Shown here: in pieces, positions 1-48,669 of the stretch | How the letters are laid out: each line of letters opens with the position of its first letter | Position numbering within the stretch: position 1 is the stretch's first letter | NCBI GenBank assembly: GCA_907165135.1 | Contig: OU015567.1 | Span: 3,596,001 to 3,660,000, forward strand | Length of the DNA stretch: 64,000 nt | Direction: 5' to 3' | Origin: Oikopleura dioica | Taxonomy: Eukaryota; Animalia; Chordata | Position numbers and translations under genes: made by a program | The notes under the pieces: model-generated | The model's input: only the letters and a program-made list of their open reading frames with translations | Told to the model about the DNA's origin: nothing | Database searches by the model: none

Positions 1-1814
1 TCATCTTTCCGCGAATCAGAGCGTTGCTTGTTCGAACTTGGAGGAGTTCTTGGTCTTCCGGTCGCAGAAGATCGATCGGATACTTATTCGATTGAATTAT
101 GTCTGTCTATTTTGAAATTTACCTTATTCATGCTGTTTTTCACAGAGCAGAGCTCCGGAAAAAGTACCACGAGGATGTTGAGTGCATCACTATCTTTGTT
201 CAGAGCTGCGTGATGCAATACAGACTCATTATCAATGTCGAGCTTCTTTAGCACAGCTGAATATTTTGACTTCATTTTCCGCAAGACATTGAGCATTTTC
301 ATATCGATCAGAATATTTGCTGGCATCGATTGTTTTGGCCAGAACTGAAAGATGTCGAAACCGTCGTCTTCGAGAATGTAAGTCAATTTCCGCTCAATTT
401 CCATTTTTCTTCATCGGAGAAGTCGGCAACATCGGTAAGCGCGTGGTAGCTCCAGTCATGGCCGTCTCGTGTTCGTGCAGGAAGAAGTTCTCGCGGAAAA
501 CGATCCGCAATACGGGTGAATTGGGCGTATGGTGCGTATTTGAGAGCAACTCCAAGAATGTTCCCCTCTGCCTCGCCTCTGTAGTTCCAGGTAACAGTTG
601 CATTCATGATTGTCGAGAGCATCTCGATGAGCCGATTCTTTTAAGTTTAACCGCGCTAGAGTTTTATTTATATAATTTTGTATGTTATCTCAACATTACT
701 TTTTGAAATTGAGAATAACATCATAAAAGAGATCCGCTGTTTCTCCATAGCTCAACCAATCAAGAGCATTCTTCGACTGAGTGTAGACCCTAAACGTGTC
801 GATGTCCCCTGTCTTAATGGCAATTTTGAGAACATATGCCACATTGCTGCCGTTCTGATCGCATTCCATCAAGAAGCGCATGATCTGATCCTGCATTGGA
901 GTCTCGTAGAGATATCCGAGCCTTAACATCCTGTGAATCAGTTAAAAGTAATGGAAACTACGTTTGATAGGACTCCAATTTTCTGTCCATTAGTGACTTG
1001 ATAGGCCAACCGTCGCCGCCAGATGCTACCTTCATTTCCGTCTTCATGTCACTTAGCACACATTTTAGAAGATGGAGCCGCTCGTCGCTTTCCCAGAATT
1101 CTATGGTGAATTAATATAAAATTGTTCTAACTTCGCTTCTTACGATGAATCATTGACAGGACCGATGGCATTTCATCTTGCTTCAACTTGTATCCAAACT
1201 CCTGGAAAATATCAATCATTTTCGCAAGTAGATATGGACCGAGTTTTCTTCCAAAAATCATTCCTTGGCCGACCACATTAGCCGCGTATTCTCTCAGGCA
1301 TCGGTGTAAAATCGACTCGCCGTTAAAATCAAATGACGATCTTTCACCTTGTGCACTTTTTAGGAGCTCTGAATAGTAATGGAACTTTACGAAACTAAAT
1401 TAATCTTCGCTACCTTTAAGGCAGATCTTTTGGCCCATGAAAGCCATTTTCATCGGAACTGTCCAAGCAGTTTCGTCGAGGACCAAGCTGTTCATGGAAT
1501 CTTGCTGCACCAGGAAAATTGTTATGTCTTTCGCGTTGGCCTCTTTTACGGATTACATTAATTATTTTATAGAAAATACTGCCTTGACTAATAGTATTTC
1601 ATGACAGAATATGTACTAATAAGTGATCCGTTACAATGGCAATGTCAAGAAGACTATATGCCCGCTGAGGTGGAAATCCAAGCGTTTGGTTAAAAGGAGC
1701 GTCGAAGGTGAGGCTGCACCAGTTCGCATTGAAGATTTGTATAAACTTCGCCGCGTTATCATATGTCAAGATTCCACGCAATCGCTCATCGAGCGCGTCG
1801 ATATTTCGAACCAT
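1..1814 (-). CDS. Multi-exon ankyrin-repeat protein, 3' end runs off the window
   Basis: Ankyrin-like motifs in successive exons: ESVLHHAALNKDSDALNILV..KNSMNK|YPIDLL, DQNGSNVAYVLKIAIKTGD, DFNGESILHRCL; short GT-AG introns. Start position uncertain. Confidence 0.6.
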
Positions 1815-1982
1815 TCTGAATCATTGTTTATACCCCTTGATAGCTTGTAGAAGGTGTAGAAAGGGGTGCAGAAAAATGCCGGAAAGGGCTGCGGCAACGA
1901 ACTACTAATAAATGTAAGCAATTGTTAATCGATCTGCCTATACAAATACAAAATGTTGTTTTTTATTATTTTACATATTTTC

Positions 1983-2180
1983 TACAAATGGCGGTGAAAG
2001 AGCTAAGGTCTTGCAGTTAACTCAAGCTAATAATGAGGTTGAGAATCGCAGTGGATTTTTTTTGTTATTTTTTACAATTTTTTTTACAAATGGCGGTGAA
2101 AGAGCTAAGGTCTTGCAGTTTACTCAAGCTAATATTGAGATTGAGAATGGCAGTGGATATTTTTTTTTTGTTTTTTCTTT
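1983..2180. repeat. Two direct copies of a ~102-bp unit
   Basis: TACAAATGGCGGTGAAAGAGCTAAGGTCTTGCAGTT starts at 1983 and at 2085. Confidence 0.85.
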
Positions 2181-2211
2181 CTTACAAACTTGCTACAAAA
2201 CCGGTGAGAAT

Positions 2212-2400
2212 CTATGATGTAGCGGTGGACTCATGCTCATTTTTGAGGTTGATGAGTTCTGTGCGCATTTCGTAGAAGTCCTGCTTCGCTTGAAGGAAGT
2301 CGATGACGTTGAGAAGAGTCCGCATAGGTGACCAGTCGGAAGTATCCTCAAGCTCCTCAAATCTCTTCAGATCATCCAGCTCTTTTTCAAGACGATCCAT
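2212..2400 (-). CDS. Small coiled-coil-like orphan ORF, probably with an upstream exon at ~2520-2600
   Basis: ORF MDRLEKELDDLKRFEELED... has protein-like composition; no recognisable domain. Confidence 0.4.
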   Translation of the reverse strand: MDRLEKELDDLKRFEELEDTSDWSPMRTLLNVIDFLQAKQDFYEMRTELINLKNEHESTATS

Positions 2401-2668
2401 GCGCGGGAAGAATCTTTGTCGTGTTAAAATAATTTAAATAATTTATAATAATATAGATGTATTAACACTTAACTGGTTATTTCGCCGACAAGTAATTGTT
2501 TTCCGCCGATCGTCAAGTAAAAGTCTTTCCGTTTGATAATCGCTCTTCCCCGCGCGGTGATGCTCTCAGCATACTCGCGCAACTCCTTCATCAGAATCGG
2601 GTAAATGTTTCTTTCATTCATTCTGAAATTTGTTTATGCAAATTACTTTTGCATATTTTAAATATCTT

Positions 2669-4683
2669 TTAGTTAAAATTCAAAGTATCAGACAAGCTAA
2701 CTTTGACTTTCAGTTTAACAAGTTTGAATGTTTTTTCGTGCTCCTTTTTCGCAATCGAGGCCGCCTTTTCTGCTTGGCCGCGTTTTATTCTGTATACTAT
2801 CTCATCATGCACGTTTACCGCTTTTTTATAGCTGCTGATTTTACTATTCATCTTATTTTTATGATTATTTGATAATAACAGCTAACCCTTGACATAATCG
2901 ACCGCGATTTCACTGCTCTTCATCACCTCAAGGACCTTCAATGTAGTGATTTTAATCTGCTCTGTTGCGTTGCTTTGAATCACGGCATGAAAGGCTGAAG
3001 AAAATGGTTTAGTTTATCTCAAAGGACCTACTAGACACTTACCATGGAATCTGCGATGTTTATTGATAGACATTGAAGGCAAAGGCCTTCTTATCTCTCT
3101 TCCTTCTTCTGTGCAAATCATTTGATGCCGGTTAAAAGTTTGAATAACTTCACGCTTATAATCAACGAGATCTATTTCCTTAGGTAAAAAATAATTGTTT
3201 ACGCGGTACCTTTAAATTTTGACAGCAGTGATTCGCGTAGAGCATTTGCGTGGAGTGTATCTATGTTAAGGTCGCGTGCCATTGAGAACAGACCTTGATC
3301 GTACATCCACTTGTAGATCAAATCTTTAATCACTTTTCGTTTATCCTCAGGAAATAAGCCAAATTTTTCTAGGAGTGATGAGTACTTTTCAAAAATGTCA
3401 TCTTCTTTGTTGAATGTGTCCGCGAGAAAGGTACTCTTAATTTATTTTAAAAAGGCCATGTTATGCCACGTGTATTATTACGCCTGATAATCCAACAGCG
3501 ATTGAATATTCGAATTGTTTGTAGTCAATGGTAAGAAAGATATGATCTTCACCCGCAAAAATAAATTGCCGTAAACTGAGAAGAAGGGATCGTTATTTGT
3601 CTGAGATAAAGTAATGGTAAATGAAGGATCCCTTTACCATATGTTTGTCCATCAAGAAGAATGCACTTAGGATAATATTAATCTCAGAAAAGGGAAAAAA
3701 TTACCTTGGAGAGACCCTGCAAATTATAATTGGACATGTAGAGGCGACCAGTCGAACTCAAAAAATTAATTCGTTTGCAATGCAACTTTCCGTCTTTTGC
3801 AGATCTTCTAGCATTTTTCAGTTTTTTCAGTACTTTACTTTATAGGTTGCATCAACATATAATAAGATAATTTACTTAGTTTTTTAAGAGCAACAATCCT
3901 AAAGGTGTTGTACTCTGCCACGATTTTGGTGCGTTCGAATTCGTCGAAGAAAGGACGAAATTTTCCCGTGTTTATGGTAGCATGATCACTGAGCCGCCTT
4001 TTTATACCGTCAGGAACGTGACCAGAGGGAATGAAGAAATCGCAAATGATCTTTCTGAGAACATTTATCTTCGAGTAAATTTCAGCAACCTGACTATCAA
4101 TGCCCAAAGTCGAAAGTTCGTAACCTTTATTCACTCCATCCAGATGTAATACTGTATGTCTATATTCTATTTGATACAATTTAAGAAAATCTGGATTCTT
4201 CAATGATGAGTTATATGTTATGTACAGCGCCTCTAGTTTCATAAAAATTGAAGACAAATGCAAGGAGCCGCCATTGAAACCGCAAGTTTTTGCCGCTGTG
4301 TCAAGAGTCAGCTTGGCAAAATTAAAGGCATTACTATTCACTATCCAAAGCATGATTTTTAAGACAAAAATATTGTCAAATAATTTAAAAACTACTGAGT
4401 TGATTGAATTAATTTCCCAGATAAATATAAATCTGACTCGAGAAAAAAGGGCTTGAATAAGTTGATGGTTATTTGACTTGAATAAATAAATATTCTTTCT
4501 CGACAAGAATTTTATGTAAAGCTTGTCCGCGGCGATATGAACGAACGCGCAGTCCGAATCTGTTGGTAAATCAACTGTTTTTAAGTGCGCGACGTCAAAA
4601 CAGTCCGTGATCAAGAGGCGCTCTGCTTGTTCGCGGCATTCAGCAATAACAGCATCAACACGAGATTTTTGCAGTTGTTCCAT
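2669..4683 (-). CDS. Family-A DNA polymerase (PolA/Pol theta/Pol nu-like polymerase domain, no helicase domain), multi-exon
   Basis: Manual splicing gives PolA motifs in order: SSTGRLYMSNYNLQGLSK (cf. TGRLSSxxPNLQNIP); motif A LRQFIFAGEDHIFLTIDYKQFEYSIAVGLSG (cf. DYSQIE); motif B KRKVIKDLIYKWMYDQG; AVIQSNATEQIK (cf. IQGSAADxxK); motif C AVNVHDEIVY. One junction near 3,594 has an in-frame TAA or a frameshift. Confidence 0.9.
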
Positions 4684-4936
4684 CTTGACTTTTAACTTTT
4701 TTTAGATGCACATCACAAGAATATGATTTGACTTATAAGAGAGTGTAAATGTGTGCAACATAACGATGGCGATAGGATAGAAATCAACTGCTTAAATTCT
4801 TTCTCAGGCAAGACCATTCTTAATATAATAGGGATAAAAAAGGAAGAAAAGTGAAGTGTACAAAGCATAGGCTGGAATGCGAAAATCAATTATTCTAACT
4901 AAGTGCCGCGGCAATTAAAATCAAGTGAAAAGGCAG

Positions 4937-6472
4937 TCAAGGTTTAAACTCGAAAGTCGTAGAAACGAATTCTTCCGCATTATTGGTATTCTGTCGACAA
5001 ACTTCCGCATGATGAGGAGAATCGTGAATGCTCACAACTTTATACATTGAGATATCATAGAACTTTCTGAGTTACATCAGGATTCAATGACAGTGAAAGA
5101 CAATCTCAAATCATATGTAACATTCCTTGTCGATGCACTTGTCAAGAGCTGGGTTCAGAAGCAGTAGTTTGCCACGCCAGAAGCACTCGCATCTGCTCTG
5201 TTGACAGGTCGCGCATTGAAGAAAGATGGCATTTTGCTTCAAATCATGACGATACCTGAACTCATTTTATGCAGAAAAATTAAGATTTAAAACACTCACA
5301 CAACAGCAATGAAGAATTTGCCGAAAATTCGTAAAATGTACTTAACCCCCTCGCCGAGATTGCGTCCGCCCGTAATCATGATCAAAATAGGCGTTCCACT
5401 GGATCCGTGTTCTGACACGGAATATTTCGAAGGAACATCGCCAGCGACAGTTCCGTATCTCGGCGAAGCTTCTCTCGCGTACTCTTCGCCAAATTGTAAG
5501 CTAATTAGAAATTGAAAGATGGTTTTCTTGCAATTAAAAACCTAAACTCCAAGCGTTTGCTTCTTTCGCGCAACTCTCGCTCGACAACTGTCCGCGTTTC
5601 GTCTTCAGTCCAAGCGATACCGGGGCAACTGTGAAACCCTCGTTCATCCATAATCGTGTAGCTGCTTGGATCGGTAAACTAAGTATTATGAGAGAACATA
5701 TGTATCACTTAAATTACCATTTTTAAAGTGGAATTGTGATTTTCATAATCGTCAAGAAGGATATGAGGTTTCAACTTCAGTGAAATCCGCCATTTGCATC
5801 GAAGACCGCTTGAGATCCCGTAGTCGCAAAAAACCCGCATATGGTCGCATCCAGAAGATTTATATGTCTTCCATCTATAAATATTTAAATAATAAAAAAT
5901 AATAATGATTCTAAACCTGCGCGCGCGATAATAAGATTGACCATCATGAAAGACGTAGATATGGCTTCGTTGATGCATGTGAGAAAAATAAGATTTAATC
6001 GCAACCAACTTCATCATGTTCTTATAAAAATTAACAAAAGTGAGATAATTAAATCTTACGAGTTCAGTATGTGCAGTTGCACTGGAGCCGTGAAAACGAG
6101 AGAGAAAATTGCCCGCATTGAAAAGGTGTACCACGTCTGATTTTCCAAAATTTTGTTTTCTTTTAACATCAGTCACCGTCAAGTCATTGTCAGGAACATA
6201 GCAGATACCATCTTCTCCGCCAGGCATTTTCTCGAGTAAAGACTAAAAGTGTATAACCCACGATGGCGAATTATGAATACCTTGGAAGCATTGCCCTGAG
6301 CTATGAATCTCCGCGAATTACTTGGGCAATGGGCATTAGTCTTCTTTGTTTGAATGAAAGACTGAGCGTTACACAAGTCATCTTCGTTTCCGGAAGGTAT
6401 ACCCCTGAGAGAAATGATATCATCGATATCAAGTATATGCTTCATCGCATTCTCAGCAGTCATTGTAACCAT
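4937..6472 (-). CDS. Multi-exon protein with two WRKY/FLYWCH (GCM1-fold)-like zinc-finger domains
   Basis: Spliced reading YVFHDGQSYYRARRWKTY..RVFCDYGISSGLRCKWRISLKL..GFHSC, then a second unit FRYRHDLKQNAIFLQCATCQQSRCECFWRGKL..HDSPHH. Last intron not resolved. Confidence 0.6.
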
Positions 6473-6825
6473 CTAAAAGGACATTAGGAACAGTCTTAAA
6501 TAAAGAGTTTTTGAATTTACCATTGGGATGGTGGAGGTAGACAGCTCATGATTTACGGAATGGGTGAAAAGGTTATTTCTTTCGCTCTGTGTCTTGATAG
6601 TCACCATCTATATGCTTATGAGAGAGAGAAGAGACAAAGCTGGATTATACCATTGGAATGCAAACCTGGCCATGAGTAACTTCATCGCCACTTAACGAAG
6701 ACCCTTGACGACGATCACCCCCATCGACTTCCATATTCAATCATTCGATTACTAAAAAATAAAAGAAAATACAAAAATGCACAAATATTCTGTTGAGACA
6801 GCGAATAATGAGACTTTTGGATAAG

Positions 6826-9800
6826 TTATTCATCATCAGAGAGGGACTGTTCTCCCGACTTATAATCATAGACGTATTCTTCATAGTCATCATCGGTTGC
6901 AAACGATTGACCGTCATATTGCAGCGGCTCATCAGATGAGTCGCTCACCGCATCAGATTTCCGCGGGGAGTCGTCTTCGTAGTCGGACTCACCGGAAACA
7001 TATACCTCAGAGTCACGATAGCCGCCTAGAATTTCATCTCCCTCTGAGTGATTGTCACCTTCGTCGCTCAGATTGTTTGCCTGGGTAGAATCATTGCACT
7101 CATGGCGTTTGTTGGACCCCGCGTCATCTTGCAGCTGCTCATCGGAAGAATCGCTCACCACCACCGCAACAGATTTCCGCGGGGGGTAATCTTCGTAGTC
7201 AGACTCATCAGAATCATATACCTCGGAATCACGATAGCTGTCCGGCATTTCTTCTCTCTCTGCGTCACTATCACCTTCGTTATTCCGATTATTTGACTCG
7301 ATAGGATCATGAGACTCATGGCGTTCGTTCAGCTCCGCGTCATTTGCATACTCATCACCCTCGCCATGATTGCTATCGTCGTATTCATCACCATCTTCAA
7401 AATATTCGTCGCTCTCATACTCTGACTCTCCACATTCATCACCACTGTTACCATTATAGCTTCTATCACTCTCGACAGCTTCATCTTGATCGATAAAATC
7501 ACGAAGTGATCCTTCAGAATCGGAATCATAGGATCTTTCGCTATCATCGCCCAAAGGATGAACATCTTCAATTGGTGAATCGCTGAAAGGATGCGAAAGA
7601 ACCGAATCCATACGCATAGGAGAGGAAACTGGGGCAGCATGCTCATCAGTACAAATTTCATCTTGAGTGGGACATTCTTCAGCAAGCGTTTTGGAAGCGC
7701 CAATCGATGAGCAAGCTAAACAAATTTTATACAAGCCGCGATAAACACAAACCTTTCGATAGTTGCGAATCATCATTTTCCACGGATCGAGCCAAAATAA
7801 TGGGCGCATCAACCAGAGACGAATAGGGATCAGGCGAGGCAAGCGAAAATTCACTCATCTGCCTTGACAGCGGAGATAAGAAAGTAGTGGACGAACTGGA
7901 AGAAGCCACACAGGTAGATTCGGGAACAGTCTCTGGGCTCTTCTGACTGCATGTCAGCTTTTTTGTCGCGGAAATAGCTGGTACATCATCAATGTGATCG
8001 TGAGAAACTACCGCGGAGTTGGTTATCTGCGTCTTTGAGGTGCGAGTTTTCTTTTTAGCCGCGGAAACAGCTGGAATGAATAAGTCATTAATTTTCTCTG
8101 AGGTAGAAGGAACATCGGGATTGAAGTCATCAGCTGCGGAGTTAGCTGTCATTCGATCATTCGCAATAGAAGAAGCAAGTTTTTCCTGAAATCCCGGACC
8201 AAGGTCAATCTCAGCATCATCATTAACCGAATGAGATACAGAATTGATAAGTTCTTCGTCAATAAGTTCTGCAAATTGTGACGTATCAACAGAGTCTTCC
8301 GGGCCAAAGCATTCAAATTCTTCCATTGGAATAGGGTTGATAGTCGCATCAGGTTTAAAGAGATTTCCAAGAGATGGAGGGGGGACCACAAATTCTTCCA
8401 ATGAACCGCCAACATCTTTGACAATGGTAAGATCGCGAAGAATAGATACAAATCGATCAAAATCTCCCGGGGTGATAGTCTTGTCCTCCCGCATTGCAAT
8501 CTTTTTCGACCATTCAACAAGACAATAAATGGTGTTAACCGAGTTCAGTTCTTCTGTAGTTTCATTTCGATATGTAAATTTGCCGCATGAAGTCTCGGTA
8601 AAATGTTCCTTCAACCATCGCGAATTATTTTCGATGTACGGCGTGATGGTTTTCGCGCGTTTCACAACATACCGCATGTGCATCCGATTAATTGAGCTTA
8701 ATACAACTTAGGATGGAAAAGATAATCACGAATACCTGTGCTTCGCCTCATTTGAATTCGTGGTCATATCGAAGCCGACGACAAAATTCTTGTCCTTCTC
8801 GACTTCGTTGTACCATGAATAACTAAAAACTAAAACGCTATTTCACATGATATAGTTCACCTTTCCAGAGTCTCTCCGCTGAACATCAAAGTCCAGTATT
8901 CCACAATTTCATCCACAAAGTCATCGACCGATTTAGTTTTTCCATCGGGAAAGTAATACGATTGATCATCGTTCTTCTTCTTCTTGCCGGTTATTGCGAG
9001 TTTATTCCGCCATGAAAAACGCGCATGTTCGCCGATTTTGTGAATCAAGTTGATAACGATTCCAGGGTGGACGAATTTCTAATTACACAAAATGTAACAA
9101 ATAACAGCAGTTATAACTTACGCAAGCCATCAAATGATTCATCGTCTTGTAATGATAGTTGGATAATCGTTTACGACCGCTGTGACCAGATACAAATCGC
9201 CGTAGATTACACCAGCTGTGATAATTACACGACAAAACCGGTGAATTCACGCATACGCCATGCTTCGCCGCGGCTAACTTGAACCCATTTTTCGCCGCAA
9301 GCTCCCTGTGCAATATAAGTAACGTAAAAAGAATAAAAAACTTACATATCGATCTTTAATTTAACCCGCCCTATTTTCTTGCCGCAAGCTTTGACATCAG
9401 TGAAGAGTTTATCGAATACACGCTCATAGAAAATTTCATCCCGTTGATTTGAATAGCCGTGCCAGCCTAAACATTCGTAAACGTATACCGTCAAAGAATA
9501 GCTTACATAAGATAGAGGCACACTTCTCGTCAGACACCCAAAAATCCAGAGAAATCAGATAGTACTGCGTGTAAAGACCAGCGGATTTAAATGTACCGTC
9601 CGCGCTGATGACTATGAAAATAGATGAAATTCACATATGAACAAAAATAAACTACCTTGACAATCTTCATTCCAGTAGATTGCAACGTGATGACGAAAAC
9701 ATCCCAGAAGATACTCCTTATGCTTTTCTTCGTCGAAAACCGTGACTTCTTTCATAACTCTCGCAGGAGAAGACCGAAACGATATCTTCATGTGCTTAAT

Positions 9801-12620
9801 AAATTAATAAAGAGAAAATAAATTATTCCATACTTCTAGATGAACCGAAGGGCAGACGGTAGATTTTGTCTTCCAATTCTTCTGATTGCGATACTGAATT
9901 TTATTCCGGATTTGCGTTACGAAATCACGCATGCCATTGGGAGGGTTAAAGTTGAAAGTATCACAAAGAGTTTCAACTTCACGGTAAACATCAACAGTGT
10001 AATGCATCTTCGCTAAATCGGACATAACCCCCATCACAGCCGGCCGCATATCATTATCCTCATTGAGAGGCCTAAATATAAATAAAATAGGAAAATGCAT
10101 TAACACATACTTGCAACAATGGGGTTTCGTGACACGACGTCTCGGAATTGCGTAAAGTAAGCCACCAATTTCTTTAGTCCTCTCCTGGTAAATCGTCAGG
10201 GACGTATTGTTCTTCGACTTTTGATAGACAATGCTGTCATCAAGAATAGCAAATTTGTAAGTTTTATCGCATTTTTTCTTCGATTCGTCCGCGTTCAAAA
10301 GATTTTGAGATTCTACAAATTTCCATTCGGAGATAGTCTTCTGGTCTTTCGAAATATAATGTACATTTTCTGTCCACGTAGATTTAGGATCGTAGTTTCC
10401 ATCAGGAGAAAATGGACGAGAAGCCTTAGTTACATCGTAAACTTTATCGCGTTTGCACCGTAAGATGAGATAATAGATATCATCGTCATGATCGAAGTAG
10501 ACTTGTTTCACCGCGAAAAGTCTGTAGCCATCATGTTCGCGAAGAATAAAATTCATCAGCTTGGACCCGTCAGAATAAAAACGGATTATCTGCGGAGGGG
10601 AAGATAAATACATCGTGATATCAGAGAATTTTCCAGCGATGAATTCCCTCCACTTCATAGCCTTCAGATTGTAGCAAGGAACGGGGGGAAGTTTAACAAA
10701 TTCGCATGTTTTTTTAGACGGTTCAGCCAGCTCAGTTTCAACAGCGCGACGCGCCTCAAAGTAATCAGCACGCTGGGTACGGTGCCTATCGAGAACATCT
10801 TGATGAAAAACTTCATCATCTTCCCCTTGAAGATCATCAGTGTCTTCATTTTGAGGAGCTACACTTTCTTCGCTTTCAGAAGAAATAAGCAGCTCAGAGA
10901 TATCCGCATGGTGAATGATAGGAGGTAGACGATCAACGGGCTTTTGTCCAACGGAAGAATCTTTCTTGCTTTGAACAGCGATACAGTTACGTTTTTTTTT
11001 TCTTGATGGAGCAGGAGTTGTGGTTGTACTATCGCGCACTTTACCAATAGATGACTTGCCGCTAGTAGATGTTTTTGTAGAATTCAAGGATCTTTTCGAG
11101 CCGCTTGACACCGACTGACCGGAACTACTCAGTTGACCATCGCGCGCTTTAGCTACAGGTGGTTGACCGCGAGTAGATGTTTTTGTAGAATGCGGGGATC
11201 TTTTCGAGCCGCTGGATACCGACTGACCGGAACTACTCAGCTGACCATCGCGCACTTTACCAACAGGCTGTTGACCGCTAGTAGATGTTTTCATAGAATG
11301 CGGGGATCTTTTCGAGCCGCTAGACACCGACTGGCCGGAACTACTCAGCTCATTCTTACGTAAAGGTGCAGGGGTCTTCAATCGTTCTTTCTTATGAACA
11401 ACCCGTTTACTAGCATTAGATGATTCATTGCGACGCCGTTTCATAGTTTTGTCAACAGGAGCAATATCAGGTCCATAAATAATCTCATCCATAATCTCAC
11501 CATCGTCAGCCAGAGCAGCCACTTTCCGTTCCTTCTTTTTGAAAGCACCAGATACAGTAGCGCTGACCGTCTCACCGAAGCTCTTTACTCGGGAAAAGGC
11601 ACGAGATGCGACACTGCCGGAACCTTTCGATTTCGGCTTCTTAAAAAGCTTGTTCTTAGTAGTTCGATCGAGCTCAGCCTCATCAATCTTCTCTTGCAAT
11701 TTGTCAGCCATCTCAACTCGTTTCATGCTCTCTTTGACGGTAGGAAAATTCGAGTAAACCGGCAATTCATTACTCGAAACTTTCTTGGGAGGAAGTTTGA
11801 TAAGTTCATTCTTCGCAACCGTTTTCTTCTTTTTCGGAATGAGTACAGAGGAAACCGCGCCATGAGTTTTTTTCTTTTCAGAAACGCGAGTGGTAGAGGA
11901 CGCGGCAGCGGTAGTAGTACCAGCACTAACAGTCTTCAAAGGTCGAGACGAGGCAGAATCAGCAAGTTCGCGGGGTTTGTTCTTCGTTACCTTACCATCC
12001 TTGGAACGAGGAGGCATCTGAGGACAACGCTTATTATCAACGCTATCGATCGTAGAAGGCTTTTTAGACTTGGCAATACTTCGCGAGGGTTTCTTCTTCA
12101 GTGGCTTTGCATCCTTGGAACTAGAAACCTTCTGAGGAACACGCATATTGTCAGAAGCACGCTGAGTCGTAGAGGGCCCTTTAATTGACGAAGCAACAGG
12201 CGGAAATTTTCTGTGGTAATCGGGACTATCAGGATCGAACCGCATAGGGGACTGGGAGTCAGCACACGCACGTTTCAACACGGACGAGATTGTCTCACCC
12301 TTATCCGGATTACGCACTACGGGCTTGTTTTCGCCGCCAGACAACTTATGCGGAACTTGACGATCCTTATTATCGCTTCCAGAATCGTGACGCGACGAAA
12401 CATTGGACTCCATCAAGACGCGGCTCTTCACAGGCTGGATATTCTTCTCATTGACCGACTTAGGCGGCTTGGGCAACACTTTCATGTTGGTATCAGGACC
12501 CCGCTTTGTAGTCATAGTAGAAGACGAGACCACATCCGAAGCGAGAGAATTCTCGTCCTTCTTTTTGTCCTTACGCGACCGAGAAGTTTTCCATTCACCA
12601 GCGCATTCGTCACCGGACAT
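6826..12620 (-). CDS. MULE (Mutator-like) DDE transposase, 1,824 aa, 9 exons, uninterrupted frame
   Basis: Exons 12620-9834, 9794-9656, 9611-9507, 9466-9346, 9305-9122, 9078-8861, 8822-8736, 8696-7753, 7715-6826 join in frame via GT-AG introns of 37-44 nt. Motifs: VISADGTFK (D1, ~9,600), KIDMELAAKNGF (D2, ~9,350), CNYH (CxxH), TTNSNEAKHSSIN (E, ~8,750), plus an upstream HDGYRLF..LRCK..PHCC WRKY/FLYWCH-like domain. Confidence 0.9.
11030..11355 (-). repeat. Three in-frame 108-bp (36-aa) tandem repeats in the transposase N-terminal region
   Basis: LSSSGQSVSSGSKRSPHSxKTSTxGQxPVxKxRDGQ repeated three times. Confidence 0.9.
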
Positions 12621-12673
12621 TGTGATTTCAGACTAAACAAACAAAATATAAATTATTCGCATAAATATGTAAT

Positions 12674-12940
12674 CTATTGTGACCAGGTATAATAACCGAG
12701 AAGACCATTAAGGAATACTATATCATTAGCAGAAAATGAATAGTTGCAGTGCGGACATCTTCCGGTAGTTAATTCAACAAGACAGCGAAAACATAGAACA
12801 TGACAGCAAGAACGAAACCGCATTGGAAAATGAAATTGATAATCAAATACACCCATACAAATAGCACAGGATAACCGATATCGAATTGGCATTCTACACA
12901 TGATATGATTAAACAAATTTATAAAAATAGATGAACACAA
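12674..12940 (-). CDS. C3HC4 RING-finger exon; probably the 3' end of a gene with hydrophobic upstream exons reaching ~13,850
   Basis: CAICMGVFDYQFHFPMRFRSCCHVLCFRCLVELTTGRCPHC; upstream exons not resolved in frame. Confidence 0.75.
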   Translation of the reverse strand: MCSSIFINLFNHIMCRMPIRYRLSCAICMGVFDYQFHFPMRFRSCCHVLCFRCLVELTTGRCPHCNYSFSANDIVFLNGLLGYYTWSQ

Positions 12941-13906
12941 TCAAGCAGAAGGAACTAGTTATTAATAAACCTAAATAACTGTCTCATCGATTCAGTATTA
13001 GTAAGAAGAGAATCGCGGCGAATCCATTCAGCAATGTACAGACCATCCTTACAATGGGTTTTGTTCGAAAAGTTGATATAAACGCGAAATAATATAAACC
13101 CATAGCCATGTAGAATTCCGGAAATGAAGATCTCGTAGTCGGGCACGAACATCAGCACTAAATAGCTAAATAAACTTATTACATACAAATCAACTTGCCT
13201 CAGTTCGGAAGTATGATTAATGAAGTTAACAAAATCCTGCTGGCAGTAAAAAAGAAGAACAGGATCACTCGAAATGCACTGGAAAAGCACTGCCAGGAAA
13301 CGTTCAACTAAAAATGAGAAAAATAACTACAGGGAAAAAAATACCTGACTCAGAATTAAAAAATGAAGGACGACCGCGGACAGGAGGAAGAGAAATCGTT
13401 GGTGAACCATTTTGACCAGAGCCGAACCTTATTCGAATACCAAAAAATAACTAACATTATCATACTGCATTCGCTGACAGGCTTGACCTAGGTATAAAGC
13501 ATCAAAAACACCATTCAGAATTCCATGAAGAAAGTTTGAATCGCATTCGATCAATGATGCCTAACCACATTGAAACATTTAAATAAACAAAAGCGTGCCT
13601 GATAAGATTCAATACATTCCGAATCCGCATAAAAATAACTAAAAACAAGTAAATTCATCTTGACGAGAACGTCGTAGAAGTCACTATCAAGATAACAAAA
13701 CCAATAAAAAAGAAATAAGGAAGACTATGTTATCATTCCTGTCATCATTGCTATCGTTGATCCTGACAGCAAAGTGCTTGCGTGAGGCATAAGAAAAATA
13801 ACGAATACCACCAGCAAGTAAATCACAAAACATTGGTACCGTCTAAAATAAAAAAAATTAATACATAACACACTGACGCGGGACAGAGCAGATAAACTTC
13901 CCTAAA

Positions 13907-13931
13907 AGGCCTACCGGCCTAAGGAAACCCT
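13907..13931 (+). other. Conserved 25-bp hairpin motif AGGCCTMCCGGCCNNAGNAAACCCT, copy 1 (others at 23,889 and 38,782; weaker at 29,452 and 30,158)
   Basis: Visible near-identical copies with the same spacing and orientation. Confidence 0.75.
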
Positions 13932-15163
13932 TCTTTAATATATATTTTTTTTTTAACAGATGCGTGAGAAATTACCGAACCCTATACAGCGTTCAAAAGA
14001 AGCTCAACTAACTTTATTGGAGAAAAAGTCGGACTAGGGCGCGGGAACCCAACACTCACAAGAGTGGGGAACTCCCCACGGCACCGTTTTTTTTTCTTTT
14101 TCAAGGGTTTTCAGTATCTCACCGCTCTTATGATTGAAAAAGTAACCAAAATCATGTGATTAGCGTTCCTTAGGATGAGGTTCTGTAGATAATCCTCAAG
14201 TGAGTAGCGCACGCCAAATCCTGTAGTGGGTAGCGGAGCCCTATTTTGCCACTATTTTGCAGAAGGAGCGCGATGGGCAACAAATCCTATTATGGGTAGC
14301 GACGAGATAAAGTGACCTACCCACTAGAGGATTATCTACTGTTATTGATAAGGAAGATCACACCAAAAATCTGAAAGAATATCCCGCGTCTGTGTCGAAA
14401 TAAATTATATACAGTGATATTTTTGAATATAAATCTTCGCGTCTCACGAAGTTGAAAATGAAGAAAAAAGAAAATGGCAGAGTGAGAGAACAGTAAAAAG
14501 GTAAGTTTGACTTTGAAATAACTTTGATAAGAAGGGAGATGTTGTGAAATCGCAAAAAAATACAGAAAATAGTGATAATTGGGATTAAAAACAATCAAAA
14601 GAAATAAAACTTGTTGATCATATTCTCAAAAGTGAAAATACGCGCATTAATGGCGGAGCATTGCGCTAGTCGTCGGATCATGTCGGGCAGAACGTCCACA
14701 CGTGCTTTTCCATCACCAGTATCGAATGGAGACGATGACTTACATGAGGTAATTAACGTTCTCAAACATGAAAAACTATGCATTAAAATACCCATTCAGA
14801 GTAATGATCGTACGCGTTAACTGAAGTCGAATGCTATCCACACTCAGATGTAATCCTTCTAGCCGCGTTAGTAATTTATCTACTTGGGACGCCGAGTAAA
14901 ATCTATATACTGTTTCATTATCGTCCCTGTGTAATTACAATAACCTGAAGTCCGATTCTTCAATCTTCCGTAAATTCTCTTTAACTCTTCGCATCTTTCT
15001 CTCAGGAGTTATAAGAGCAAGGCCAACCGCGTTAATTTCAAAACGATCCATAAAGCCTAAAATTGAGACATTATTTACCATGGAATTCTATTCTAGAAAC
15101 AAAAAGAAAAAAGAAACAGATATAAGTGGATGGTAATTCGCCAATAATCTTCAAGAAAACTGA

Positions 15164-15391
15164 CTGGGGTTCACCCCAGCCCGCGAATTCGAGCGCATGA
15201 TTAATCGCGGAAATTAAGAGAAATATCCTCGCTTTGGGTTTGTCACAATGAATTCATCAAAAAATAAACTTGACAAGCCATAACAGAACCACCAAAAAAT
15301 AATAATAATAAATGCTGCACATCAGGAAATCCAGTCATTCGTCACGTGCATAAATTTACCAATGATCGCCCGGCTGGGGTTCACCCCAGCC
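15164..15391. other. Two copies of the perfect hairpin CTGGGGT-TC-ACCCCAG near the strand-switch point
   Basis: 19-mer CTGGGGTTCACCCCAGCCC at 15,164 and 15,374; a similar GTGGGGA-AC-TCCCCAC hairpin at 14,064-14,079. Confidence 0.8.
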
Positions 15392-15675
15392 CTGAAATGA
15401 ATCAGACAATACCGACAGTGTAGTGAATCACGCGATACTGCTTATCTCATCCTTTGATATTTGTCAACGCGTGTTTTTCAGATAGAATCATATTTTCATG
15501 TTGAAAATTTCAACAAAAATGTGCGAAAACAACTTTAAGTTCGTAGCGAAGATATTTAAAGATAAAATAATCAGTATGTCTATGGGTAAATCAAAGTCTA
15601 GTATTTTCGAGCGGGGGTTAAAATAAGCTATCAGGTAAAACAATAATTACATTGTCTTTTAAAAAGTAAAAAAAA

Positions 15676-17774
15676 ATGCAGGAGGAAGATGAAGTCAGTC
15701 GAGACTTACACCAAACCTTACTTGTCGCGGCTAAAAATCCGAGAAAAATAAAGAAAATGAATGCAGCTCAATTAGATGAAGGTATTTAATTAGTTTCTAC
15801 TTATTCTAAAGTGAAATGAGTTCAAATCGAGAACCAAATCGGTATAATTAAAAACGAAAATATTCGGCCAGCTGCCAATCTTCTCAAGGGAATCGCAGTT
15901 ATTTCTTCGGAAAAAAACATAAAACATCTAACCGACTGCAGAATTTTTCATGAGCAAATAAAAATGGCATCAAGAGGACAAGAACAGGAATTCGAACTCA
16001 ACAAAGGCGGCATAAACATCAAAAGCTACAAAGAAATAGAGGAAGATATTAAAAAATTTGAGAAAATGAAGAAACGAGAAGACGCGGACGATAAATACAA
16101 GGTCGATCCGTCAAAAATAACTCTACGTGAACAGCCGGATGAAGAAATAATCTTCAATTTAGACGAAGAAATACAGGAGATTGACGAACAGGCTATTGCA
16201 GGTAAAACGTAAAAGTGAACAACTAGTAACGAATTCTAGAATTGCTACAAGAAGATGAGAAGGACGATGATTTTGTCGCCAATGTCATCAAGTGGAGACG
16301 ACGCGATACGACTGAAATCAATGAATCGGACAGAGAAAGTAACAGAAGCGAAACAATAACGACGGAGGAAATCGACGAGTTTGATTTAGATGCACGGCGT
16401 TCCATTCAAGAGCGATCGCACTCAGTTGAAGAAGGCGGCCAATTTATAGAATACGCGGAAAAAGAAGATAATAATGATTTTTCAACAGAAGAAAACTCAA
16501 AAGAAAAGAAAACGGCCACAACAGATGGAAATCAAGACGGAAACCAACAGTCAACTAAAAATGTCACAAAAATGACCGAAAACGCGAAAGAAGAGATATT
16601 GGACCTGAAGACTAAAAAGACAACCAAGAGAGAAATTCCAAAGCTTAAAAACTTCAAAAATTACGAAAACGAACGAAATTGGGGCCAGGGGAAACAAAAA
16701 AAAGCGCGAGGAGAATGCCGGGTTTCCTATTCTACCATATAAACAGAAAGGGAAACGAAAAGAAAAGAGGCGGAAGCTAATCATAGGTAACGCAATAAAC
16801 AATAACCCCCCCCCCCCACGCCTTCTCCTCTTCCCCGCACTCCCTAACTGTTTTGCCAAAATGACGAAGATAATATAAATTTATTTGAGACACGGAAACG
16901 CAGATAACTGAGGAAGAGCACATATCGCGTATCCTTGGCAAGCATGATGATTACTGCAAGAAAATGGACGATGAAGAGAATGAATTCAAAATAGTTGAAG
17001 AAAACCCTGTTCAATTATTCACAAAACGATGCACGCGTTCAACAACCGCAAAAATCGAGACGACTGACTTTATGATGGAGGGTATAAAATTGAAAAAGAA
17101 ATCCCCGAAAAGAGAAACCGTGACGAAAAACTTGAAAGAAACCGTCAATGATGATGAATGGCAAGAGAATTTTCTTTCCGGGAGTCCACTAAGAGAATTC
17201 GAGAATCAGTTAGGGTCCGAGACAGATACACATTGTAGAATGCGCCGGGTAGCCAATCAAAAAGCGTTATTCGATGAACAAAAAAAAAGAGATCTAAAAT
17301 ATCACATGGCAAAACGAACCATAGAAATCAGTAATTTGAGAGAATCACTCGGCACTTATTCAAAATGTAACAAATTTGACAATTGTTCTAGAACTTACGC
17401 GGACCCTAGGAAAAGCAAGAAAGCAATAGAATAACAAAAAAATCGGCTGACATCAAAATCGGCGGGAGCAAAGAAGACATAATTGACTGGCTAAAAAAGC
17501 AAAACGATGATAAGCAAACAATCCAGGAATGCTATGAAATAAAACTTTGCAAGGCGAACCTTAATTCTGAAAAATTTTAGCCATTTTAGCCCGTTAAAGA
17601 GAAATAGTTATTTTCATAACATAACAGAACTATATAAAAAAGAATACCGATGGTAAACGAAAGAGTGCCGCCCGTTCATTCCACAGTGTTCTGCAATTAC
17701 TGAAAGAAGGAAAAGTAGATGGCAAACAGCCAAAAACAGAAGATGGAGACGAGATAACCCTACAACTAAAGTGA
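15676..17774 (+). CDS. RAD21: Rad21/Rec8-family alpha-kleisin (cohesin subunit), multi-exon
   Basis: N-terminal NLLKGIAVISSEKNIKHLTDCRIFHEQIKMASR (cf. [27 protein letters not shown]); central KRRKLIIDTETQI..ILGKHDDY (cf. RKRKLIVDSVKEL..QLSDYSD); C-terminal winged helix KRKSAARSFHSVLQLLKEGKV..Q..EITL. Rad21 versus Rec8 is not resolved, and one internal junction near 17,370-17,420 is not resolved. Confidence 0.85.
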
Positions 17775-17913
17775 TTTCGCCAACTGTTTAAAAAAGATAT
17801 GTTTCTTTTACTGCGAATAACTTCCTTTTTGATCCCCACTTTTCAGCCACTTTTCAAGCACAACAATTGTAATAAAGTAATCAATTAAGACAGTGAAAAT
17901 TATCGGTCGAAAA

Positions 17914-18582
17914 ATGTTCTACTGCGTCGGACGAGGATGGGAGGTCGCTATATCGGGGATCACTGATTTTTATTATAAATTATTTTTTTAACATAAAAAA
18001 TCCCTTTCGAAGGCATTTTTACAGATGAGAATCGCTTCAAAAAGTCAGTTAAATATTATCCCGCAATCGATAACTTCTTCATATCCGAAAATGAAACTGC
18101 GGCTCAAAATTGGATGAAAGAACACTGTAAATCGGTAGAAGAAATTCTCAGTGAACAAAACAAGGACGTAAACAATGGTTTTGTCGGAAAAGGAACGCGT
18201 TCAGTTAATAATAGAAAAAAAGATCCATAACTTTCTTTAACGCAAAAAAGTAGAGCAAACAATATCCCAAATAGAAATATTCGACGGGAAAATCAACTGG
18301 AAAATCGAGGTCGGCGACGCAACCGGAGTCGTTCAAGTAAAGGAATTCATGAAACAATAAACATTTTGTTAGGGTGAAGTTACTCATGAAGTGGTGGAAT
18401 ATATATTTGGGATTAATTTATTCAAAAAACAAATCAACCCTGCAATATTTCACGAGATAACCGAAAGAGAAAGAGAAAAAGCGGAAAAAAAACTTGAAGA
18501 ATTTTATGGCCTGATTGAATTATTGAAACTACCAGAAAAAATACTTATAAAATCCTTCACCAAGTTCAGTGACACTGTATAA
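17914..18582 (+). CDS. OB-fold protein resembling the RMI1 C-terminal domain; one in-frame TAA at 18,238
   Basis: Spliced WKIEVGDATGVVQGEVTHEVVEYIFGI..EKKLEEFYGLIEL aligns by eye with RMI1_C [42 protein letters not shown]; POT1 or RPA1 C-terminal OB folds are alternatives. Start is uncertain. Confidence 0.5.
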
Positions 18583-18649
18583 AAACCCAGTAACAACAGA
18601 ATTCCTTACGAATAAAAAATTCAGAATTCGAAAGGTAGACGAATCAGGC

Positions 18650-19282
18650 AGTCCAAACGCGGAAAAAAAACAGACGAGAGCATCAAAAGACGCGGCAAAC
18701 AACGCGGAAGAAGATAAAAAGGGAGTAAGTATCGTTAACCCATTCCCATAGGCGCGTGGTATCATGATAGCTGAGAAAGTACTCTCCGGGCTTAAGACTG
18801 ATACCACCGCTTGTATTGAAGCGCAAAATTGCTGAAATGAAAATTTCAGCGAATCAGCGCGCCATTTTCTTCAGCGACCTAATTTCATTATTCAGACCCC
18901 GCAACATCAACTCCGCAGTCACAAACGCGGAAAAGAAGAGAGAAACGCACTAGAAGACGAGGCAAACAACGCGGAAGGAAGATAAAAAGGGAGTAAGTAT
19001 CGTTAACCCATAGCCGAAGGCGCGTGGTATCACGATAGCTGAGAAAACACTCTCCGGGCTTAAGACTGATACCACCCCTTACATTAAAGCACAAAATTGC
19101 TGAAATGAAAATTTCAGCGAATCAGCGCGCCATTTTTTTCAGCGACCTAATTTCATTATTCAGATCCCGCGACATCAACTCCGCAGTCACAAACGCGAAT
19201 AAGAAGAGAGAAACGCACTAAAAGACGCGGCAAACAACGCAGAAGGAAGATAAAAAGGGAGTAAGTATCGTTAACCCATAGC
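18650..19282. repeat. ~270-bp tandem repeat, cluster A
   Basis: Unit marker ATTGCTGAAATGAAAATTTCAGCG at 18,828 and 19,096. Confidence 0.9.
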
Positions 19283-20515
19283 TAGGGTCCGCACGCAAAA
19301 ATCGACCACCTGAAATCTCTTGATTTTCAAAAAACGGCTTGGATAGTATGATAGAGCAACTCAAACTGAACATTTTTCATATTGAAAGTTTTTCACCGCC
19401 GCTGACTTTTCTGCCGGAAATAGTCAGGTTTAACACCGGAAATCGGTACTTTTTCATGTTTCTGGCCGGCTCACCTTGATCTCGTCGTGATAAGATATCG
19501 ATAAGAGGCTCAAAAGAAAGCTCGTCGTCTGGGCTTTCTTCTGGCACCAAAAAAAAAAGTAGTCACTTAATATAAATTTTTGGCGCTAGAAGCGATTGAA
19601 GGTGCCCAGGATGCCCAAAAATTGCTCAAAATCACCGGAACTAGCGGGTTTCGGTCTAAAACCTCATGAAACCCCTTACATATTGATATCTTTCGATCGG
19701 ATTTTTTCTCTAGACGAAATATTGACCGGTTGAGAGCTCAACCAACCGGTTCTCAAGCCAAAACCAGCCGGTTTCTCTCCAAAACCACGTGTTTTCTAGT
19801 ACATATGGATATCTATCGAAAGGATTTTCTTTTCTGAGTACAAATTGACCGGCTCGAAGCCGGTTGAAAAGTCAACTCTGGTCAAGTTCGGTCGGAGGAC
19901 CTCCCTGGTGGAAGACCAACCGCTGGAAGACCAGTATTTAAAATTTTCAATATGTGGCTATGCTCGGTCAATATATGGCCACTTATGGTCAACATTGGTC
20001 GAGTTAAGCCGGAGGACCCTCGGAGGACCTCCCTGGTGGAAGAAAATAAGCTGGAAGACAAAAATTAAAAAAATGAAATAAAATGCCTTGCTGGGCTAAG
20101 AATCAACACTTTCGTCGAACTTTGGCCACTTTATGCCGGAGGACCACCTGAGGACCTCTTTTGCTGGAAGACAATCTACTGGATGACCAACCTTTAAAAA
20201 AATTAAAAATCAATCACAGTTAACTCAGTGATGAAAGGCGCCACGCCGACCGAAAGCTATCAGGCCACTAAATTCAGTGAGTGACAAGGCAAAACCGTCC
20301 AGGAGAGAAGACAACATCTTTTTATTCGGCTCAGAAAAGAACGAGCTGCCGCGGGCAAACATATGGATATCTATCATATTTCGACAGATTTTTCGCGGAA
20401 ATTTTCAACCAATCGGAAACCTTGATTTTTCAAACCGGCCAATGAGCAGCCGAGTAGCCGCCCACTCAAAATTTGTCAAAATTTTTATGTTGGTTTCAGA
20501 CACGACCCCTAAAAA
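19283..20515. mobile_element. Degenerate non-coding interspersed repeat inserted in the 270-bp array
   Basis: Abrupt TAGGG start and CCCCTA end; segment 20,400-20,515 is similar to 56,987-57,110 in the host region; no TSD found. Confidence 0.5.
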
Positions 20516-21325
20516 TTGACCGGTTTAGATCTAAACAGCATTCCAAATTATCAACTCAAAAGTCTTCGATAACGATTTTTATAAATTTATTTTTGAACAT
20601 GTTTCATAATTCTGCAGGTTGTCTTCGAGAAGATGGTGTTCTAATATTTTTCCGCTTTCTATGAGCTTTGAGTTAGGGATTTCTTTCAATAGGTCTTCAT
20701 CTGTATCAGAATTTTTACTGCTTGTTCACGCCTTAACGGCAACATCGCGTTTAGCAGCGAGACCTTTCCTGGTGGATAACTACAAGTACTGTAAACAGTC
20801 ATTTTTGCTCTTCTCTCATAAATATAGGAGGGGTTTTCATAAATTTGTATTGTTTTTGAATCTTCTTTGTTCTTTCTGAATATCAGTTAAAATAACGCTT
20901 TCAGCTAGAAAGAAAAAAAACAACTTGCCTTTTATTATGTTGGACGGTGGAAAAATGAAATTTTTTGTTTTTAGCATCCCTGTGAGCTCTGAGAGTAACC
21001 CATTGCTCATATTTTCCACAATGAAGATCCATCGAATTGAAAAAACTATCTTTAACTGGGGTCGGAGAAAATGATGAAAATGATTGGTTGATAGATTGTA
21101 GGTTTTTTGCACCAGTTACTTGTTACCAGTGATCAACGACCCAAATAGCTCACCGCCACCAATCCATTAAAATTTGATTCTCGAATCAACCGACTCACCT
21201 CTACCGATTTAATGCCTTTCCGACCCCGATTCTTCAATTTTACAGTAGACATCGTTGCCCTCACGCCCAGCGGTGATAGTGTAGTTGAGTGAGCCAATGG
21301 TGATCCCATTAATAGTTGCTAGCTA

Positions 21326-21544
21326 GGTTTCGAAATTGCGTGTTTACAAATTTATTTTGAAAAAATCGATAAATTAAATTTTTTTTTTGCGTTATTTATT
21401 GACAATCTCTTAATGTTTGTCTTTTATTTTTTAACTTATTCATGAATAAGGAAAATAACCGAGAATAATAAAAGAGATTATAAGTATAAAATAATTCGAG
21501 TTATGTTTAGAATTCAAGCAGATAAAACGACGCAAATCGCAACC
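21326..21544. mobile_element. Small AT-rich MITE with imperfect ~16-bp TIRs flanked by TA
   Basis: TA|GGTTTCGAAATTGCGT ... ACGCAAATCGCAACC|TA. Confidence 0.45.
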
Positions 21545-22060
21545 TAGATGGCTAACAAGAGCAAATGCCCTTCATTCAACTGCTCGATTCGTTTAGGTAT
21601 TTGAAGTGTCTGTATGCGATTACATTAAAATTCTTCCATTTAAAAATTCAGAAAACGTAATCGAAAATCTTTTGTAAAACCTCCCCATACTAGCTTTAGA
21701 GACGTCATATCTGTCTCAAAAATTGGTAGTCCCTGTGAACTTTTTGCGTAGAAGCTTCTGTACTTCAATGGCTCGGGCTTCAAGATTGCTGTGTTTGGCG
21801 AAATGTAATTCTTCGATGATATTTTGAATTTTTCTTCAGCGGTGCCGAGACCAAACATACTAGGTTGTTCAGGAGCAAAGATACCATAAGGAAATGGTCT
21901 TTTTTCGAATCGAAATATTTGTTGTTTTTAAGAACTTAGTAAATTATTATTTTATAAGCAAATTTAGAATTCCTTTATCTCTAAGAATAATGAAAAATTC
22001 TCTTTTCAATTTTCCTGAGAAGTTGGATTTCATACGATTTGTCGATACTTTGGACAATCG

Positions 22061-23030: not shown

Positions 23031-23443
23031 GATTTTAGCAAGATAACCATGAAGTACTATTTCGCCAAGTGAGAATAATAAACCATAACTTAATACAAAA
23101 ATAAATAATTTAATTTTTTAATAAGAACTAGTAAAATGATAAAAAAGTGGAACTTCTAGAAAAGTTTTGAAGATGACCTTGATTTTAACCAGCATATACC
23201 ACCTGTATGCATTTTAGCAAACTCAAATTTGCAGAAAAAGCTTTCAGCGAATCAGCGCACCATTTTCTTCAACAACCTTTTACAATATTCAGACCACCCA
23301 ACGTCAGCAGCACAGTCAGATACGCAGAAAATAGACAAACGAAGCAAGTGACGAGACATATAACGCGGAACAATATCTCAACAGTACTTAAGTAACAAAA
23401 CCCTTTATTACGCGAAAACAAGCTAATATTTTAGACACAAAGG

Positions 23444-40140: not shown

Positions 40141-40269
40141 GACATTTAAAAGGGAACAAAGGGGGAACTCAACTGTCATTATGCCAGACAAGAAGTCGTG
40201 AGTTGAAGATGGTTTTGGGATATTCTTGCTAGAAAGGTTCGCTTTTTCAAGTATATTTGTGGAAAATTT

Positions 40270-40852: not shown

Positions 40853-40883
40853 GGAAAAACTTTCATCGGAAAACTTTCATAAG

Positions 40884-48600: not shown

Positions 48601-48669
48601 ATCAACTTTTTTCTCCCATTTGTGCCACTTAACCATTAATTGACCGGATGTCCCTGGAGGTCCGAGAAT

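Follow-up and report, generated by a model that had tools for sequence, protein, structure and literature searches.

A helicase-less, POLQ-like family-A DNA polymerase gene in a row with a putative Mutator-type transposase in Oikopleura dioica

The stretch of Oikopleura dioica DNA analysed here, 64,000 nucleotides long and referred to as the window, carries on its minus strand a family-A DNA polymerase gene (4683-2669, with its start ATG at 4683 and its stop at 2671-2669). The gene keeps its catalytic residues, has POLQ as its top structure match, and is linked on the same strand to a transposase gene and a RING ORF, in a row of genes of which diverged collinear copies exist. Our preferred explanation, held at a probability of about 0.45, is that it encodes a helicase-less polymerase derived from POLQ and carried as cargo by a large Mutator-type transposon, likely for repairing transposition breaks. 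If so, the row would be mobile and the polymerase would act in break repair.

Results

The DNA of the window is eukaryotic and its introns are very short; together with the operon-like packing of the genes and the marine origin given for one of the DNA runs, this points to O. dioica. The polymerase frames can be joined by seven modelled introns of 36-48 nt each into eight predicted exons encoding 565-575 aa (~570 codons; Table 1). An ab initio splice script served solely to suggest introns; the models of the polymerase, the transposase and the zinc-finger gene were each checked separately. An earlier note on this DNA had described a stand-alone, spliced family-A polymerase here; its coordinates are right and the family held up in the Pfam and Klenow comparisons below, whereas the splicing is modelled. 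Intron 7 may be either a 36-nt GG-AG or a 66-nt GT-AG intron, both of which keep the frame; if the latter is used, exon 8 starts at 2820 instead. The structure of exon 1 was predicted with low confidence (pLDDT 33.6), and its first ~255 aa had no significant match in Pfam, word-based protein, Atlas or solved-structure searches. Judged from length and position alone, this N-terminal region may be a degenerate exonuclease-like domain plus thumb. Exon 5 found nothing in the word-based protein searches, 0 of 8 window ORFs were present as exact sequences in the protein collection, and the searches for plasmid and Rfam matches returned none. Four RNA runs gave 45, 25, 3 and 0 reads, all partial fits and mostly at T- or A-runs.

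Table 1. Features of the minus-strand gene row, from its head to the left end of the window.
Feature	Position	Strand	Remarks
Spliced genes without Pfam match, row head	12955..15450 (approximate)	-	Modelled frames
RING-finger ORF, single exon	12674..12901	-	zf-RING_2 E 0.003, Rtf2 E 4e-5; 53 nt upstream of transposase
Putative MULE-type DDE transposase	6826..12620	-	1,811 aa, nine GT-AG introns, no internal stop
508-aa zinc-finger-like gene	4713..6734	-	Two Cys/His clusters; no Pfam match
Polymerase exon 1	3876..4683	-	ORF, 269 codons from ATG 4683; N-terminal region without recognised match
Polymerase exon 2	3705..3832	-	STGRL (R299 = E. coli R668), NLQG
Polymerase exon 3	3638..3665	-	28 nt, modelled; region of POLQ/POLN insert 2
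TAA	3593..3595	-	In frame with 37-nt GT-AG intron 3637-3601; intronic with 55-nt GA-AG intron 3630-3576
Polymerase exon 4	3482..3600	-	Motif A IDYKQFE; D347 = D705, E352 = E710 (E. coli)
Polymerase exon 5	3210..3435	-	Fingers, motif B; R394, K398, Y402, Y406 = R754, K758, F762, Y766
Polymerase exon 6	3043..3171	-	Modelled exon
Polymerase exon 7	2888..2994	-	HAVIQS, paired with POLQ INTIVQG in alignment
Polymerase exon 8	2669..2851	-	Motif C VHDE and VKLKVKV, the latter common to the POLQ C-terminus
Small two-exon gene, downstream of polymerase	2212..2621	-	No significant match
Ankyrin-repeat-like gene	1..1815	-	Ank_5 E 0.0095, one exon; runs past window left end

By sequence comparison, the polymerase is confirmed as a member of family A. 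The Pfam family DNA_pol_A matches four separate polymerase exon frames in profile order (profile positions 91-131, 140-172, 176-250 and 318-376, with E 0.0086, 0.06, 1.3e-6 and 3.7e-5, respectively). The two spliced models reach alignment scores of 187 and 201 with the Klenow fragment of E. coli, as compared to maxima of 61 and 63 over 200 shuffles each. Four of four family-A motif patterns are present versus at most two of four in 2,000 shuffles, the patterns having been chosen after the sequence was seen. Motifs A, B and C, described earlier as kept, were found as claimed (DYKQFE, RKVIK..Y..Y and VHDE). Residues R299, D347, E352, R394, K398, Y406, H530, D531 and E532 correspond to E. coli R668, D705, E710, R754, K758, Y766, H881, D882 and E883, and the metal- and nucleotide-binding residues that were checked are retained, including the catalytic Asp, the RxxxK and the template-binding Arg. 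Departures from E. coli Pol I are R712 to Ser, H734 to Phe and F762 to Tyr, and both glycines of motif B are gone (YKWMYD versus FGLIYG). Around N845/Q849 the pairwise alignment with E. coli slips, and the POLQ alignment sets HAVIQS on INTIVQG.

The earlier statement that there are no obvious exonuclease motifs stands: when aligned with the exonuclease/thumb region of E. coli, the first 255 aa do not outscore shuffled sequences. The reported lack of a helicase domain was also borne out: the POLQ-type helicase motif is absent in six frames of the window, in which the sole helicase is an RTEL1/XPD-like gene 26 kb from the polymerase.

Within family A, descent of the polymerase from POLQ appears probable on sequence similarity. 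POLQ came out top in three solved-structure searches, a ranking for the C-terminal part alone in searches that overlap in the last exon and are not independent. Against solved structures, the last exon matched POLQ at E 0.015 and Taq at E 1.3. When motifs A to C were read through, human POLQ was matched at E 2.8e-4 to 2.5e-3 and fish POLQ at 0.17, with no other polymerase at E ≤10. A two-sequence profile, built with the relative P0002, gave 25.2 bits for human POLQ, 24.2 for fish POLQ, 13.9 for Taq, 12.6 for POLN and 10.6 for E. coli, and the best POLQ match of the C-terminal part reached E 1e-4 (25 bits). As a control, a phage PolA query placed Pol I first and POLN 59th, with POLQ absent among the 60 listed of 64 matches. 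The affinity to POLQ comes from the C-terminal 120 residues at 19-25 bits; exons 1, 2, 4 and 5, searched singly, matched no polymerase among solved structures. P0002 itself is a 68-aa sequence from one 983-nt Logan contig, with 54% identity over 48 aa, at which it retains the HDE and the C-terminal pattern. It was the 1 match found among 1.84 billion proteins searched (E ≤0.001), POLQ not being among the matches.

Other branches of the family scored lower or at the edge of detection. Phage families matched the window exons at E 0.018 or worse, exon 5 matched only DNA polymerase I genes among phage records (E 0.8), and PRK05755, the bacterial-type Pol I, gave 15-16 bits per exon. A Tyr occupies the Pol I Phe762 position, and the O-helix reads K-D-L-I-Y, i.e. 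DLIY after K398. According to published O-helix criteria, POLN carries (K/R)xxY and Pol I carries (A/T)xxF (PMC5472330); having DxxY, the polymerase agrees with neither POLN nor bacterial-type Pol I. POLQ is recognised by an N-terminal superfamily-2 helicase in the same gene, and here the upstream gene is the zinc-finger gene. POLQ has three sequence inserts; here, the length of inserts 2 and 3 varies with which intron 3 and which intron 7 is taken. Metagenome and viral-contig scans gave no true relatives, and two scan loci taken up as candidates were discarded, one being a phage-like polymerase end and the other a chance match. The earlier note named grouping as the host's POLQ/POLN orthologue as a result that would speak against its view. 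This holds halfway: the similarity ranking brings the gene towards POLQ, yet its copies stay linked to transposon-type genes.

From ~15.4 kb to past position 1, every gene is on the minus strand, in the order: spliced genes without Pfam match, RING ORF, transposase, zinc-finger gene, polymerase, small gene and ankyrin-like gene. The five spacers that were measured are 29-94 nt long, and at four of them the next ATG is preceded by AG within about 20 nt. The spacers and AG sites suggest that the row could be co-transcribed as an operon resolved by trans-splicing. The 508-aa gene stops 29 nt before the polymerase ATG and may be fused to it in frame via a weak 44-nt intron; its Cys/His clusters presumably resemble WRKY-GCM1/FLYWCH zinc fingers. 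Contrary to the earlier note, the DDE transposase is not next to the polymerase: this 508-aa gene intervenes, and the catalytic exons lie at 9.6-8.75 kb.

In the transposase, D967, D1037, CNYH (CxxH) at 1064, a W and an E near 1197 were identified, with 70 residues from D to D, the CxxH 27 after the second D and the W 22 before the E. This agrees with the MULE pattern (Muta1 D214/D283/W401/E419; 15-45 aa between the second D and (C/D)xxH, with a W ahead of the E; PMC5499845) in triad, (C/D)xxH spacing and position of the W. By these motifs the transposase is probably of MULE type; no Pfam MULE match was obtained when it was searched exon by exon, and its zinc-finger leads (GCM 0.86, FLYWCH 0.80) are both under the reliable 0.9. 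In the Ghost clade a RING ORF lies beside the MULE transposase, and MULEs often gain ORFs and pick up host gene fragments (PMC6446971). A search of the window for terminal inverted repeats and for the 8-11 bp target-site duplication of MULEs gave no candidate, the left end of the row lying outside. A candidate SWIM-type transposase at 1-1900 was rejected, as this stretch reads as the ankyrin-like gene on the opposite strand.

The earlier note had also compared the polymerase with those of Polintons, in which setting a PolA would be unusual. Polintons/Mavericks are marked by a protein-primed PolB, a retroviral-type integrase and capsid genes, hallmarks that are absent among the 35 + 28 frames scanned; nor was any packaging ATPase, protease, primase or D5 helicase found in these frames. 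A PolA within a transposase-bearing, multi-copy row is indeed unusual, but the Polinton frame is wrong because the transposase appears to be MULE-type, no capsid, packaging ATPase, protease or integrase was found with it in the frames scanned, and the polymerase leans to POLQ and away from bacterial, phage and TVpol enzymes.

A TAA at 3595-3593, left in frame by the 37-nt GT-AG intron 3637-3601, stands nine codons before the approach to motif A (LRQFIF). The 23 canonical introns modelled in the row are 37-48 nt long, and the stop-retaining 37-nt GT-AG intron is favoured because it fits this range better than the 55-nt GA-AG intron. Enumeration gave two solutions with an AG acceptor that keep the frame open: the 55-nt GA-AG intron (3630-3576), and a GG-AG intron of 130 nt by which exon 3 is skipped. 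Both GA-AG and GG-AG are among the intron classes allowed in the O. dioica annotation (PMC11067885), and 11-12% of introns in this species are reported to be non-canonical (PMC8008620). The window differs from the contigs of two or three short-read runs at 403, 638, 3115, 4835 and 6753, which are probably long-read assembly errors. At the TAA codon, no difference common to the short-read contigs is among those listed, and a contig of run X4 over 3116-4447 has 0 substitutions and 6 gap letters. An assembly error was thus rejected as the source of the stop, unlike at the five other places below 7 kb, and the TAA is genomic in the main copy. An altered genetic code was also discarded, because TAA, TAG and TGA end modelled genes normally. 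The main copy is either dead, owing to the TAA, or dependent on a non-canonical intron; we regard an intact mRNA from it as somewhat doubtful.

Copies of the row were sought by aligning the short-read contigs of four DNA runs (X2, X3, X4 and X6, of which X2 may be the source and X3 and X6 come from other studies) to positions 1-20,000. The main copy is near-identical and of flat depth in three runs, and is found in pieces in one environmental run. Its depth is flat from 1 to 18.6 kb, a span that includes the neighbouring kleisin-like gene, so the main copy has not recently multiplied. Besides it, there are two diverged collinear copies, B and C, whose depths vary by sample. In copy C, which conserves coding blocks, contigs connect, in the order of the row, the ankyrin gene with four short blocks of the polymerase and with the zinc-finger gene; its depth is 42.9 versus 98 in X2, and two joints are at 114 versus about 200 in X3. 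Pieces of equal depth may be taken to belong to one contig. Copy B shows 81-89% identity in four listed pieces, touches the ankyrin, polymerase, zinc-finger, transposase and RING genes, and reaches 15.3 kb. Its depth is 19-21 in X2 and 4-7 versus about 10 in X4, with no X3 joint among the 15 of 46 joints listed. The depth in the bin beyond 15.3 kb is slightly above that of the main contig. As its pieces run to 15.3 kb and depth is raised in the next bin, copy B is possibly a second lineage or a larger duplication and not a copy of a transposon. The collinear, diverged copies imply that the polymerase stays with its transposon-type neighbours across deep divergence.

Discussion

The most serious alternative is that the gene is the polymerase half of the host's own fast-evolving POLQ, split from its helicase and placed in an ordinary operon with a domesticated MULE gene; the copies would then stem from segmental duplication or from a second lineage in the samples. 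Split POLQ genes have been annotated in some lineages (PMC5472330), Dictyostelium and Thalassiosira have polymerase-only proteins that group with PolQ (PMC7515707), and O. dioica operons are reported to mix unrelated genes. The main copy at flat depth in three runs (in pieces in the environmental one), the possible extension of copy B to the kleisin-like gene, and two further divergent repair genes within 31 kb are also consistent with this notion. However, there are at least three collinear copies with sample-dependent depth, and the neighbours in the row are transposon-type genes. The divergence of copy B is far above the 3.6% heterozygosity reported for O. dioica, and if the main copy were the sole POLQ of an animal depending on microhomology-mediated end joining (MMEJ), a stop in it would be surprising. 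We therefore consider this explanation rather unlikely.

Alternatively, in the manner of Pack-MULEs, the polymerase might be passive cargo, a captured POLQ fragment decaying without any role in transposition. MULEs do pick up host gene fragments (PMC6446971), the TAA under the best-fitting intron is genomic, and the motif-B glycines are lost. However, the catalytic residues survive despite drift to the edge of detection, there is at most one lesion in about 570 codons, copy C conserves coding blocks, and P0002 keeps the HDE and the C-terminal pattern. These results suggest that the family has been under selection for a long time, regardless of whether the main copy is still intact, and passive cargo is in our view unlikely.

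Very unlikely is an origin from a bacterial or phage PolA or from TVpol, with the enzyme replicating a self-synthesising or virus-like element. The Klenow-like size would suit it, as would the GA-AG model with its Pol I-like spacing before motif A and slightly higher E. coli score (201 versus 187), the phage-record matches of exon 5 (DNA polymerase I genes only, E 0.8), and the RTEL1-like helicase in the same window. Yet Pol I ranks below POLQ and phage families barely score, exonuclease motifs are missing, no primase, D5 helicase or virion gene was found among the frames scanned, and three viral-contig scans yielded no true relatives.

A divergent POLN orthologue with a germline role would explain the stand-alone architecture, the O-helix Tyr and the LQGLSK of the polymerase, which we take to resemble a POLN motif. 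It is nonetheless most improbable, given the DxxY in place of (K/R)xxY (PMC5472330), the 12.6 bits versus 25 for POLQ, and the multi-copy, transposase-linked setting.

We thus return to a transposon-borne, POLQ-derived polymerase as the preferred explanation. Long ago, a MULE-type element would have taken up the half of POLQ that holds the polymerase, and selection would have retained it since. Excision by the transposase would leave hairpin-ended double-strand breaks, at which the theta-like polymerase could bring microhomologies together and fill in the gaps, whether at the donor or the target site. Co-expression of polymerase and transposase would then improve survival of the element-bearing chromosome. 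Each of these steps beyond the linkage is conjectural. MULE excision is known to yield hairpin-ended double-strand breaks (PMC5499845), in flies and worms donor sites left by the DNA transposons P and Tc1 are repaired by Pol-theta end joining (PMC12426944), and O. dioica is reported to be without classical NHEJ (PMC11067885, PMC12426944). Taken together, these reports would make the joining of microhomologies the expected task of an element-encoded polymerase. A bolder version, which we think unlikely, is a giant Mutator-type transposon family that carries a working Pol-theta offshoot for end joining in an animal without classical NHEJ; here the polymerase would possibly be tethered to element ends by the zinc-finger fusion, and the RTEL1-like helicase and the kleisin would be possible cargo. 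In that case it could also be one source of the microhomology-mediated repair that underlies the extreme scrambling of the genome.

Several known systems resemble parts of this arrangement. With the polymerase domain of POLQ/Mus308 the gene shares the top structure match, the O-helix Tyr, the C-terminal VKLKVKV and the lack of recognisable proofreading motifs; it differs in having no helicase or central domain, a length of ~570 aa, extreme divergence, several transposase-linked copies and a possible internal stop. POLN, the Dictyostelium and Thalassiosira proteins and kinetoplastid PolIE are likewise helicase-less nuclear family-A polymerases, but they are described, in the accounts consulted, as host genes and not as transposon cargo, and the window gene lacks the (K/R)xxY of POLN (PMC5472330, PMC7515707). 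MULEs with extra ORFs (Ghost, Muta1 and Pack-MULEs) show the same spacing of D, D, CxxH, W and E, zinc-finger genes, an adjoining RING ORF and captured host genes (PMC6446971, PMC5499845), whereas the row in the window takes up 15 kb or more and holds at least six genes, and its ends were not found in the window. Polintons, PLVs and TVpol elements also place a polymerase within a eukaryotic mobile DNA unit, with TVpol in the family-A superfamily (PMC2579912). They differ from the row, which has a MULE-type transposase by motifs and, in the frames scanned, no protein-primed PolB, retroviral integrase, capsid or D5 helicase. TVpol is a minimal family-A core linked or fused to a D5-like helicase (PMC2579912), while the window polymerase has a 255-aa N-terminal region, an affinity to POLQ and no D5 helicase match in the frames scanned.

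Both POLQ-like polymerases that stand alone and MULEs that have gained extra ORFs have been described before (PMC7515707, PMC2579912, PMC13571142, PMC6635534). The main text of a MULE survey never uses the word "polymerase" (PMC6446971), and no report of a MULE combined with a theta-like polymerase was found in the literature searched, largely without subscription papers. Cut-and-paste transposons normally rely on the host to mend their breaks; a MULE with a theta-like polymerase would, if real, be a transposon encoding its own repair step. This would bear on two questions in O. dioica, a chordate without NHEJ: the polymerase responsible for its microhomology end joining, and the cause of its genome scrambling. 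It would also offer a natural minimal, helicase-free Pol-theta variant for assay.

Other features of the window

A divergent Rad21/Rec8-like kleisin gene lies at ~15586-18400 on the plus strand (Rad21_Rec8_N E 0.002), head to head with the minus-strand row. A divergent RTEL1/XPD-family helicase gene with tiny introns was found at 30813-33760 (+; DEAD_2, Helicase_C_2), in which an A-run frame change near 31,340 may be an assembly error. Together with the polymerase, these are three divergent DNA repair/recombination genes within 31 kb. Over 13000-35000, the plus strand has a strong A-over-T skew (mostly +0.2 to +0.4) that sets this region apart from the remaining window. At 14183-14341, a ~155-bp element with 28-nt inverted arms (86% complementary) lies at the border of a bin of raised depth and is possibly a MITE. 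Tandem units of ~270 bp and ~422 bp occupy 18640-23320 and 26160-27810, and depth is up 5 to 17 fold from 18.7 kb.

Further along, 39270-51130 contains direct and inverted gene duplications, e.g. 40.9-42.8 kb inverted versus 49.3-51.1 kb, and two Cys-rich ORFs (42644-43465 and 44555-45244). A 291-codon ORF at 61818-62693 (-) appears kinase-like by eye and has no Pfam match. At 54445-55483, 10-bp tandem arrays form inverted arms in a foldback-like arrangement.
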